Source of the DNA: Octopus vulgaris | Lineage: Eukaryota | Assembly: GCA_951406725.2 (NCBI GenBank) | Contig: OX597838.1 | Coordinates: 3,472,001 to 3,536,000 of the forward strand | Direction: 5' to 3' | DNA: 64,000 nt | In this document: in pieces, positions 14,501-18,300 of the stretch | Numbering within the stretch: position 1 is the stretch's first letter | How the letters are laid out: every line of letters begins with the position of its first letter | The notes under the pieces: generated by a model | Told to the model about the DNA's origin: nothing | Database searches by the model: none | What the model saw: only the letters and a program-made list of their open reading frames with translations | Position numbers and translations under genes: made by a program

Positions 14501-15359
14501 CGACTATAAGATACCCGGTTTTGGTTAAACTGCACCGCAAAATGTGGGAGTAGTTAGGAATCTAAATCGTAGGAGACAGACACCACACAACTTGACTTTT
14601 ATATATAAAGATATATATATATATATAAATAATACAAATGAGTTAAAGGTTCCCTACAGCTGTTTCAGACAGTTTTTATTGATGGACCCTTTGATTACAT
14701 AAAGAAAAAAAAAACATTTCCTTCAGGCGATTAAAAATTTGGTTCAGAGATAAAAATACAAGATGTGGATTGACCCTCTCAATTAGGCATATAATTATAA
14801 TTAAGGGTACTGGAGAGGCACCACCATGCCAGAAACAGCAGTCAAAACTGACTCTAGAACCACATCATATTTTCATATAGCTGTTCATGAATTCTGTGCT
14901 ATATGAGTACATGTGGTTCTAGAGTTAATTTTGACTGCTATTTCTGGCATGGTGGTGCCTCTATGGTACCCGTAATTATAATTATTATATACCTATAATA
15001 ATTATTACCTATTTGGTTTTCTCCATGCTGGCCACTTGATATGATCATCATTCTAAATAATGGTCTTGTCTTTTATAAATATATATATATATACACACAC
15101 ACACACATATATATATGAGGGTATTATTGTTTATAATAATATCAGTGGTTTAGCATTCATAAAAAAACCTCAAAGGGTTTATATATATATTATATATATG
15201 CATGAGTGGTTGTGTGGTAAGTAGCTTGCTTACCAACCACATGGTTCCGGGTTTAGTCCCACTGTGTGGCACCATGGACAAGTGTCTTCTGCTATAGCCC
15301 CGGGCCAACCGATGCCTTGTGATTGGATTTGGTAGATAGAAACTGAAAGAAGCCCATCG

Positions 15360-15392
<33 letters not shown>

Positions 15393-18300
15393 ATATGTTT
15401 GTGCTTGTTCCCTCGACATCACTTGACAACCAGTGCTGGTGCATTTACATCCCCGTAACTTAGCGGTTCGGCAAACGAGACCGATAGAATAAGTACTAAG
15501 CTTACAAAAAATAAGTTGTTCCTTCGTAAAGCTAATAATGTCCTCCGTTGTCAGCTTGTTAATATCCTTTGGTGGACTCCAGAGTGGCCAGGTTCGCCAG
15601 TTGTTTATAAATGGCAATGGTTTGATTTGTGAAAACCATTTAAGCCTTGCGCTGGTTAGGTTCAGCGTTTGCCATAATAAAAGTGCAGAATCTTGACCAG
15701 TAATCGGGCCATGATTCAGACGCTGAGACCAGAGCAACAAATGGTGGGATAGCAGCAGCAGAAGTTGGAATACGGGAGCTTGGACTGGAATCTTTTTCAG
15801 AAATTCAAACATGAATCAGCCTTCTCAAAGCCTCCATGTCTTCTCTGTGTTGCTGCGTCTGTTCCTCCATTTGTTCTCTCTGCAGTTGAAGTTGTTGTGT
15901 GAGTAACTTTATCAGCTCACTGCTTTATTTCGCCATTGCTATCAACATAAAAATAGTTAAATTATCGATAATAGAAATATTAAATTACTAAGTCTCTCTA
16001 AAGGAGATTACGGCAGCGTTACTGGATTTAAAGGTTATCGCCATACTAATATGGCAGTCTATAAATATAAGACTAAAGCTGTCGCTGATTAACTCCAAGA
16101 GGCCACCGCCTCTAGCTAGCTATATGACACACGAACCTGTGTCCATTACAACCTTCGAACAAGGGAGGTCAGCCGCTTCACCTTGCTAGTCAGACATCTG
16201 CAGACATGTTTCAGGGTTGTTGCCCTTTATCAATGCAGCGTAGTCAGAACCAGCAGGTGTCGCTACTGACTGTCTGTTCGAAGATTTTATTTACCTAGTT
16301 ACACTGGAATACATCCACTTGTTTTCAATAATAGAAATATTAAAATTATCGTTTTATCTAAACTGAAGCTTATGTGCAAAACTGATTGTTTACCTTTCAA
16401 ATAATTATATCTGAGTGTCAAGGTAAAAAGTCCATTCTGCAAGAATAGCCTTTCTTATCCTATCGTAAGAAGTCCACTTCACAAAAATGACAACAGTTTC
16501 CTACCGTCGACACCAATTTGTTATATTTCCCTTGTTTACTTACAAAGAGCAGAGTAATAATCCAGGTAGGTGTGTTGTCTGTGGCTCAATATACTTCTCT
16601 CGTTTACTCGCAAAGAAGAAAACACAGTGGTTCTCCAGATAGGTGTGAAGTCTGTTTATTCCAACTGCAAAACTCAAAACTAATAATAACGAAAACAAAA
16701 ATCGAGACACTTTGTGAATATTCTCGTGAGTTCCAGAACTTTGAATTCTATTGGCAAACAATCTTCACAACAATATTATTGTCCATCCCCTATTTACTAT
16801 TTTGATGCATAGACCCCTTTGTTTATTATTTTGTTCTGGTGAATTCCTTTAACTATTCGATGTTTAAAAACTAGTTTTATAGAAACTTCTTTTGAAATTT
16901 CCTATTTTGTTTTTCGCACATTAACTTGTGTAGGTTGGACCCTGTAAAATGTTAGAGAAAGAATCTCAGCTGTTTCTTGCAATACATACCAATATATGCA
17001 TCTAAAACAGGGGTTCTCAACCATTTCTCATCTATGGATCCCTCTTATTACTACTTTATTCTGGTGGACCCCCATATCTATCTGATGTTTGAAAACTAGT
17101 CTTATCGATACTTCTTTAAAATTCCCTATTTTGTTTTTCACCCATTGACTTGTGTAGGTGGAACTTCGCAAAATGTCAGAAAAAGAAACCCAGCTGTTTC
17201 TTGCAATACATACCAATACATACATCTAATGCAAAATTGTTTCAGGGGCCCTTAAAACATTATTGTGGATCCCTAATTTACTATTTTGTTGCGTGGACCC
17301 TCAAAAATCATGGACTGTTAGGGGCTATACCAACCCCTGTTGAGAATCACTGATTTAAATCCTTTTCCTCCAAAGTTGCTGGCCTTGTGCCAAATTTTTA
17401 ATGCGTTCTTTTAGGTGCAGTCATTGGTGGGTGGATGTGGTCAAGAGTTTTCTCATTCTTTGGCATCTTGGAGCAGTTGTCATCCTGTGCAACCTTCGGC
17501 TGATCATTGCCTTGTGTGTCTGACAATGTTAACACAGTTTTTGTTTAATTTCAGAATTGGTGGCTGTGTTCAAAGTTTGGTCTGGGACCCCACTGGTTCA
17601 CGTTTAGCTCTGCTGTTCAAAGGTAAATTTTTTTAATAATCAGATTTCTTAAATCCTTAAAATCCTTAAAAATGTTTCAGCCCGAAGGCTGCGGCCATGC
17701 TGGGGCACTACTATCTGCTAGAAAATTAACAATCTCATCACCAAAATCTCAAAGCTATGAGATAATACATGATTAATTGAAAACTATGGACAGAGTAACC
17801 TGAATGGCCCAAATATTCTACCAGTTTTATGCTTAAACTGGCCAGATCCTGTCTCTCACACCTACCCTACAATGTCATTCTAAAAACAAACAATCACATT
17901 GAAAAGCTAAGACATAATGCATGATTAATTCAAAATAATTAGTTTTTTAAAATAGGAATAAAAAAGCAATGCATTTGACAGAGTAATCAGAAATTTAAAG
18001 GGTTGAACAGGTTGTTCTAACTTCTGTTATTTTGTGGTGACCCTTTCAGTAAATCCCTTCCGGTTCAAAGTACTCCGTCTCCAATTCCAATATGAAATAC
18101 TCCCACCCACTTCCACTTCTAATGTTCCTGTTTGTATTGCAGAATCCTTTGGTTGTAAGAAAAACCTGATAGCAGTATTCCGTACAACAAAAAGCCCTTC
18201 TCTGAAAGCCACGCCATGGTAAGGAAATTTGTTTTGCTTCTTTTTGACCCCCAACTCACATGACTTGACCCCTTGTTCTATGAAACTAAATGTTCTGTGG

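Follow-up and report, generated by a model that had tools for sequence, protein, structure and literature searches.

A window of 64,000 nucleotides from the genome of Octopus vulgaris (contig OX597838.1, positions 3,472,001 to 3,536,000, assembly GCA_951406725.2) carries on its minus strand a small non-coding element with a type I hammerhead ribozyme, whose cleavage core has a U3-A8 pair in place of C3-G8. Judged from sequence comparisons, this feature is real, under selection and mobile, and at the level of its family it shows the sequence-level marks of a retrozyme. It is very likely a non-autonomous hammerhead element that is mobilised by Penelope-like elements (PLEs). It is also probable, at clearly lower confidence, that the whole life cycle is that of a dispersed animal retrozyme without long terminal repeats (non-LTR retrozyme), predicted to cleave itself, to be circularised and to be copied by a Neptune-type PLE. 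The genome that was searched for copies is 2.8 Gb in size.

A preliminary description of this locus had placed a unit of about 340 bp at 15985-16327, flanked by a 17-bp direct repeat. The repeat is present at 15968-15984 and 16328-16344 as noted. The unit is 360 nt long, because the match extends into a second unit in each of the 29 other best-matching loci, and the right copy of the repeat consists of the 15-nt end of a 5'-truncated second unit plus two bases of a target-site duplication (TSD). Contigs of runs X16, X17 and X18 (coded organisms A, C and D) represent the empty site and join position 15958 to 16343, skipping 384 nt, i.e., the 375-nt insertion and a 9-bp TSD. Both the continuation into a second unit and the 9-bp TSD given by the empty site rule out the 17-bp repeat as a TSD or LTR. 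The window copy thus comprises 1.04 units with one hammerhead only, and a pattern scan of the whole window returned a single match, at 16198-16238. A genome DNA search gave 2933 candidates; identities were 95-100% throughout the 40 that were scored. The longest ATG frame in the doubled unit has 30 amino acids (aa). The earlier view of a small non-coding retroelement is supported. When folded as a circle, the unit has a minimum free energy of -111.8 (z -4.6, 64% paired), and the hammerhead fold is accessible in this highly self-paired monomer, as forcing it costs 0.3 kcal/mol.

The footprints of other copies provide the basis for the mode of spread (unit position p corresponds to window position 16328-p). 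A 26-mer near the 3' end of the unit has 632 exact matches in the genome, and the insertions behind the first 100 of these 632 listed places were analysed, which gave 74 insertions with 121 arms (L032, L033, L035, L036 and L031 are represented by their duplicates, and C2:155394120, 161480580 and 172255028 had been included via earlier loci). The 3' ends of the 121 arms fall mainly at two positions, 53 at unit ~360 and 49 at unit ~300, and (TA)n adjoins 70 of these 102 long or short ends. Two inverted arms were found in 40 of the 74 insertions, with the 3' ends facing outward in all 40, and one long end was combined with one short end in 26 of the 29 classifiable inverted pairs (binomial p ~8e-6, calculated by hand). 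Copies form partial tandems with a fixed 3' end and variable 5' truncation, so that insertions range from 0.1 to 2.6 units; 27 of the 121 arms are longer than one unit and two are longer than two units, with arms of 893 and 937 nt in existence. TSDs of 9-15 bp were observed at non-microsatellite sites, and thus copies both in (partial) tandem and with TSDs, which the preliminary description had proposed to look for, are found. Among the first 100 listed places, no long arrays were detected, the runs having at most three units, and by hand arithmetic the density of ~0.25 per Mb in these places already covers all 632 matches. PLE insertions are described as having partial tandems, an inverted 5'-truncated arm, a one-sided tail and a (TA)n bias (PMC8557442). 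Because the scars of the octopus family match this pattern, mobilisation by a PLE enzyme is inferred.

The same arms provide information on the template of reverse transcription. At the predicted cut site, 74 read-throughs were counted, with one stop at unit 122-128 against 2.1 expected, and the unit junction was passed 40 times, with 5' ends at 2 vs 1.7 and 2 vs 3.4 expected. In the tests for 5'-end pile-up, which comprised twelve windows, 5' ends were enriched at the base of the long hairpin (window 16168-16157; 16 vs 4.2 expected) and just 5' of stem I (13 vs 4.7 expected). Since the 5' ends pile up at the hairpin and not at the cut site, the template was a folded RNA that is continuous over the cut site. 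Rare variants were common to units within one insertion at 30 of 7652 sites (0.39%) vs 0.034% between insertions, an approximately eleven-fold difference that is expected if one monomer is copied repeatedly. A circle accounts for all of these template observations, and an uncut multimer with template jumps accounts for most of them.

The minus-strand reading of 16198-16238 in the preliminary description was accurate: the 5-bp stem I, U3-A8, the 4-bp stem II, ACAUGU and the GUC triplet are all present. The imperfect extension of stem I goes on as a hairpin of about 130 nt (16152-16284, 133 nt in total; -56.8 kcal/mol, z -6.5), and none of 200 shuffled sequences was equally stable. The label "minimal", on the other hand, has to be withdrawn, as the motif retains contact bases of full-length type I hammerheads, namely U1.7 and the final A in loop 2. 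This loop A does not vary across 23 superfamily sequences, and conservation is at least 90% for U1.7 as well as for the U in the UAC bulge. The UAC bulge presumably resembles that of the Schistosoma ribozyme. A Hoogsteen contact between U1.7 and the loop A has been described as a feature of full-length hammerheads (PMC11875169). The minimal hammerheads of PLEs, as described in PMC4209133, have an extra base after A9 and a long stem II and lack the tertiary-contact bases, whereas the window hammerhead is without the first two and conserves U1.7 and the loop-2 A. In folding predictions, stem III does not pair within the monomer, and therefore a dimer would be needed, as has been reported for newt and axolotl ribozymes. 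The Rfam covariance models gave no hammerhead match in the window and matched none of four relatives, one of them with C3-G8. The expectation that consensus-based searches would miss the motif is supported in this respect, but the U3-A8 pair is not the sole cause because the C3-G8 sister copy was missed too.

The U3-A8 pair is the consensus of the family. An exact 30-mer containing it has 194 copies in the genome (reversed control, 0), while the versions with C3 and with a purine at position 3 have one copy each (the former C3-A8). Moreover, U3-A8 occurs in 54 of 55 cores from the 74 insertions (contigs C1 and C2), which had been picked by the 3' motif, independent of the core. Two outcomes raised in the preliminary description, a CUGAUGA consensus and the absence of other copies, were not what was found, and the idea of a doubly mutated copy of a CUGAUGA family is excluded. 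In a broader context, a 31-place pattern detected 1862 motifs in the genome and none in the reversed control, corresponding to 1186 U3-A8, 556 C3-G8 and 120 mixed cores. The units of this superfamily are ~360 nt long, and its subfamilies range from 92% down to ~60% identity. The C3-G8 branch aligns across the unit with 58-59% identity (E down to 2e-10; alignment score 140 vs a shuffled maximum of 91).

The hammerhead structure is under selection, as all helices covary. In the 23 superfamily sequences, hammerhead pairing is kept in 96% of 299 cells and two-sided changes are found in 11 of 13 pairs; the centre of stem III varies among AU, UA and CG (GC also occurs), yet the stem is palindromic in 23 of 23. 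A shuffle test of this covariation is inflated by relatedness, and slid controls drop to 24-50% paired. The low mutation rate of the core was not used, as it is biased by the choice of loci. In an unrooted 42-row tree, with three mixed rows uncounted and long branches flagged, one change of the 3-8 pair suffices (support 97/96); midpoint rooting places C3-G8 within U3-A8, the C3-G8 copies making up a single branch beside at least four deep lineages with U3-A8. On this tree, the swap is a single event that was retained across deep lineages, and by itself it is weak evidence of selection. The proposal that a joint change from C3-G8 to U3-A8 reveals selection is therefore upheld for the structure, where the case rests on the other covarying helices, and not for the swap alone. 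The implied novelty of the pair also has to be given up: a few natural U3-A8 hammerheads, with the pair stated to be active in vitro, were reported by Perreault et al. 2011 (PMC3088659), and U3-A8 was described in 2014 for the hammerheads of Schistosoma Cercyon PLEs, with ~1,300 hits (PMC4209133). The cases in PMC3088659 show the same compensatory pair in few examples, whereas most cores have it in the present superfamily, which comprises more than 1,000 copies and includes a homologous C3-G8 branch.

Some further variants of the core were observed. In two loci of a sister subfamily (L295 and L303), the core is a U3-G8 wobble accompanied by C7, and the palindrome of stem III is longer; this may represent an intermediate of the 3-8 swap. 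Genome-wide, 544 C3-G8 motifs with an ACAUGU stem III were counted (control, 10), many of them old and diverse, which are probably relics of other PLE pseudo-LTRs (pLTRs). A hammerhead-less subfamily suggested by locus L018 was rejected, as the odd middle of this inverted unit (L018:1118-1215), where ~100 bp of repeat has replaced the hammerhead region, has a 92% match at a distance of 800 bp within this locus.

The genome also contains an intact PLE, which encodes a 775-aa protein with RVT_1 plus GIY-YIG as its C-terminal domain. It is assigned to the Neptune clade from domain order and linker cysteines rather than from a tree. Its insertions show scars like those of the retrozyme, with a tail of 37 nt, and its loci (L152-L161) have a median pairwise difference of 0.09%. 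PLE protein matches were found near 3 of 61 family loci, none of them upstream on the same strand. With regard to other hammerhead-like sequences, the 3' region of the young PLE contains a degenerate look-alike (L152:6325-6365) with U3/A8, a 4-bp stem and a palindromic hexamer; it has C in place of A13, and no canonical hammerhead was found in the young PLE. A separate, older U3-A8 family (L250-L265) is of the minimal PLE type with an extra base after A9, has two 3' ends ~40 nt apart, and lies 3' of same-strand PLE open reading frame (ORF) remnants in 3 of 16 loci (e.g., L255, L256 and L264).

In the cycle that we consider probable, transcription reading through those few copies that carry at least two hammerheads on one strand would yield an RNA in which two hammerheads pair via the palindromic stem III and cut after GUC, with U3-A8 standing in for C3-G8 in the cleavage core, thereby releasing a 360-nt monomer. 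The monomer circle would be closed by a host ligase, as an analogy to the retrozymes of coral, mussel and axolotl suggests. A GIY-YIG/reverse transcriptase (RT) protein would then nick AT-rich DNA and prime at unit 360 and 300, positions that are evident in the footprints, the enzyme being the presumed part. Priming may often take place once per target strand, giving inverted arms, and copying, as observed, crosses the cut site and the unit junction and would halt randomly or at the hairpin, leaving 0.1-2.6 units with short variable duplications. For the copy in the window, a dead end is the likely outcome of this process.

A number of points weigh against this cycle. Cleavage, expression and the circle are predictions for the window family. 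Tandem copies with two intact hammerheads do exist at the family level, but two same-strand hammerheads occur in only 4 of the 74 insertions, and a hidden master array outside the assembly may exist. The window subfamily has A10.1-U11.1 vs the usual G-C described in PMC4209133, and one of nine frog retrozyme dimers was reported to be cleaved in vitro (bioRxiv 10.64898/2026.07.22.740005). PLEs without hammerheads also form partial tandems (PMC8557442), and thus tandems need no circle. A re-ligated circle and an uncut linear RNA are equally compatible with read-through of the cut site. None of the sequencing runs with family sequence is recorded as RNA; contigs of presumed RNA runs contain the family sequence but not the flanks of the window locus, and cannot tell a circle from a tandem. 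As to the enzyme, the comparison of the unit with two PLE 3' ends gave as the best match a terminal 32-mer with an E value of 0.33, and the 360-nt unit had no match to the ORF-linked U3-A8 family. By sequence divergence, the intact PLE is also far younger (0.09% pairwise) than the retrozyme family (2.3% from consensus). Because of the age difference and the absence of significant shared sequence in these comparisons, the intact PLE is taken as a model of the mobiliser rather than as a proven partner.

The closest competitor, which is possible but considerably less probable, retains the same element and PLE mobilisation and differs in the template. Here an uncut linear multimer or read-through RNA would be copied, extra units would result from template jumps or a hidden array, and the hammerhead would cut rarely or only trim. 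Such a template agrees with the lack of a stop at the cleavage site and with the 70 of 74 insertions without a same-strand hammerhead pair, most of which have no or one hammerhead. In addition, hammerhead-less Naiads are reported to form partial tandems and inversions (PMC8557442), and dimer-type PLE hammerheads are reported to cut poorly in vitro (PMC4209133). However, purely linear inheritance should make the element shorter with every generation, and this is at odds with the arms of 893 and 937 nt and with the lack of any array among the places analysed. There is also no 5'-end pile-up at the unit junction, and the core, the palindrome and the contact bases were kept while the rest of the sequence fell to ~60% identity, which argues that a working ribozyme is needed.

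Other origins are less compatible with the data. The units could be solo or duplicated pLTRs shed by an autonomous PLE rather than an independent family, a view with which the PLE-type scars and the separate U3-A8 family, three of whose 16 loci lie 3' of PLE ORF remnants, would agree. PLE pLTRs are known to carry hammerheads, U3-A8 included (PMC4209133), and frog retrozymes are described as sisters of pLTRs (bioRxiv 10.64898/2026.07.22.740005). It is nevertheless improbable, given the scarcity of PLE protein matches near the family loci. In addition, the long arms always run into another unit, the 59 free 5' ends share a flank only in one fold-back pair and through an inserted long interspersed nuclear element (LINE), and the hammerhead is of the full-length type rather than the PLE minimal type. 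Finally, the existence of tandem units, and the frequent classification of ~360-bp repeats as satellites, may point to spread at the DNA level (satellite, Helitron-like or recombination), in which case the hammerhead would be incidental or a doubly mutated relic. This is very improbable and largely refuted by the insertion footprints, which comprise 3' ends at fixed positions and random truncation at the 5' side, as well as inverted arms, duplications that vary and the empty site. The clustering of truncations at an RNA hairpin, the U3-A8 consensus and the covarying helices also speak against it.

The retrozyme unit is itself a target of another retroelement. A ~1.7-kb, ORF1-only LINE-like element is inserted at unit 59-76 in different host copies, with duplications of 11-18 bp (L286 2558-6091, L287 1968-3691, L288 6542-8259, and L294-L309), sometimes as a repeated insertion. 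Among 16 exact LINE 3' ends, 11 lie at unit 59, three at the corresponding position in a sister subfamily (in one case matched by its first 22 bases only) and two elsewhere, i.e., 14 of 16 are at the unit site or its homologue. The inserting LINE is putatively of the L1/Tx1 type, and LINEs of the Tx1 clade are reported to target repeats (PMC4494074). A candidate 5' transduction, from a flank common to three copies, was rejected because this flank is the 3' end of the LINE inserted with duplications. In a unit of a sister subfamily, a different LINE of 5.3 kb with zf-CCHC, APE, RT and zf-RVT, broken by stops (L289:2198-7472), lies a short way upstream of the hammerhead and has a 20-bp duplication; a comparable insert may be present in L291, in the C3-G8 branch. 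Three independent arms (L047, L237 and L177/L293) start exactly at unit 59 with no LINE 3' end alongside.

The features of the locus are listed in Table 1. Elsewhere in the window, a Penelope-type RT fragment lies at 61444-61701 on the minus strand, with 34% identity over ~85 aa to the intact PLE. Abundant repeats that we take to resemble a short interspersed nuclear element (SINE) family lie at ~15200-15360 and ~15430-15510, and pieces of the first recur at several sites in the window.

Table 1. Features of the hammerhead element and its insertion site (window coordinates).
Feature	Position	Strand	Basis or remark
Whole insertion, 375 nt	15968..16342	-	full unit and 15-nt second-unit stub on the 5' side
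Non-coding repeat unit, 360 nt	15968..16327	-	tandem junctions in other copies
Second unit, 5'-truncated (unit 346-360)	16328..16342	-	comparison with other copies
TSD, left copy, 9 bp AAATTATCG	15959..15967	.	sequence and empty site
TSD, right copy, 9 bp AAATTATCG	16343..16351	.	sequence and empty site
60-nt tail between preferred 3' ends (unit 300, 360)	15968..16027	-	arm-end counts
Long imperfect hairpin, hammerhead at tip	16153..16283	-	folding
Type I hammerhead	16198..16238	-	sequence, contact-base conservation, covariation
Hammerhead stem I	16238-16234/16202-16198	-	5 bp
Core positions	U3 = 16233, A8 = 16228	-	sequence
Stem II, 4 bp	16226-16223/16216-16213	-	loop 2 at 16222-16217
Stem III, palindromic ACAUGU	16209-16204	-	sequence
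Predicted cut after GUC	between 16203 and 16202	-	inferred from hammerhead numbering
Predicted tertiary-contact bases	16196..16242	-	UAC bulge 16242-16240, U1.7 16196, loop-2 last A 16217
LINE target, unit 59-76	16252..16269	-	duplicated on insertion in other copies; unoccupied here

The most similar known systems are the animal non-LTR retrozymes described by Cervera and de la Pena 2020 (PMC7229834), which also have a type I hammerhead in a non-coding unit of 170-400 nt, a highly self-paired monomer and co-occurrence with PLEs. Within that account, the closest example is the mussel retrozymes (~350-390 bp), and amphibian retrozymes have a similarly weak palindromic helix III. Those retrozymes are described in tandem arrays and their circles have been demonstrated, whereas the octopus family, for which a circle is predicted, is dispersed, mostly in fewer than 1.5 units, and has U3-A8 in most copies. 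PLE involvement is proposed in PMC7229834, while here the insertion ends are readable and agree with PLE footprints. Plant LTR retrozymes differ in having a type III hammerhead in LTRs and a 4-bp duplication, where the window element has a type I hammerhead, no LTR pair and a 9-bp duplication. Neptune-type PLEs share the partial tandems, inverted 5'-truncated arms, one-end tail and (TA)n targeting (PMC4209133, PMC8557442), but their tail is given as 30-40 bp, compared with 60 nt in the retrozyme unit, which has no ORF. The non-autonomous elements of Chlamys such as MRC1 (PMC8557442) are, like the unit, non-coding, PLE-mobilised and head-to-tail; they are described as lacking canonical hammerheads and as having a 3' end like that of the autonomous partner; the unit has a hammerhead, and no such partner was found with the two PLE 3' ends compared. 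A recent preprint on vertebrate retrozymes (bioRxiv 10.64898/2026.07.22.740005) reports dispersed monomers of similar unit sizes and proposes a PLE origin from co-occurrence and pLTR similarity in 31 vertebrates, three insects and a coral; the evidence here comes from insertion-site footprints, with no pLTR similarity. A literature search on cephalopods, U3-A8 and Tx1 targets found no account of this family and no PLE footprints on retrozyme insertions, with Repbase/Dfam, which may annotate the family, and two supplements outside the search. Thus, the apparent addition is the superfamily itself, dispersed and mostly with U3-A8, together with its readable PLE footprints and the LINE that is specific for one site; the U3-A8 pair was already known.

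Owing to the dispersal and young age of the family, every insertion can be read individually, and the footprints implicate PLE enzymes without sequence similarity. In practical terms, descriptors based on CUGANGA would miss approximately two thirds of the superfamily (1186 + 120 of 1862). As a more speculative and rather doubtful extension, the superfamily may survive without master arrays because a PLE RT copies a ribozyme-made circle from two fixed starts, with U3-A8 ancestral, C3-G8 a later reversion, and PLE, retrozyme and LINE forming a stack of parasites. Since this genome holds both U3-A8 and C3-G8 homologues as well as an intact PLE ORF, the prediction of a circular vs linear template is testable. 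PLEs have been termed "strong candidates" for the mobilisation of retrozymes (PMC7229834), and hammerhead function in PLEs has been called "still unclear" (PMC8557442). The octopus family bears on both open questions, namely how animal retrozymes enter genomes and what role the hammerhead plays in Penelope elements.

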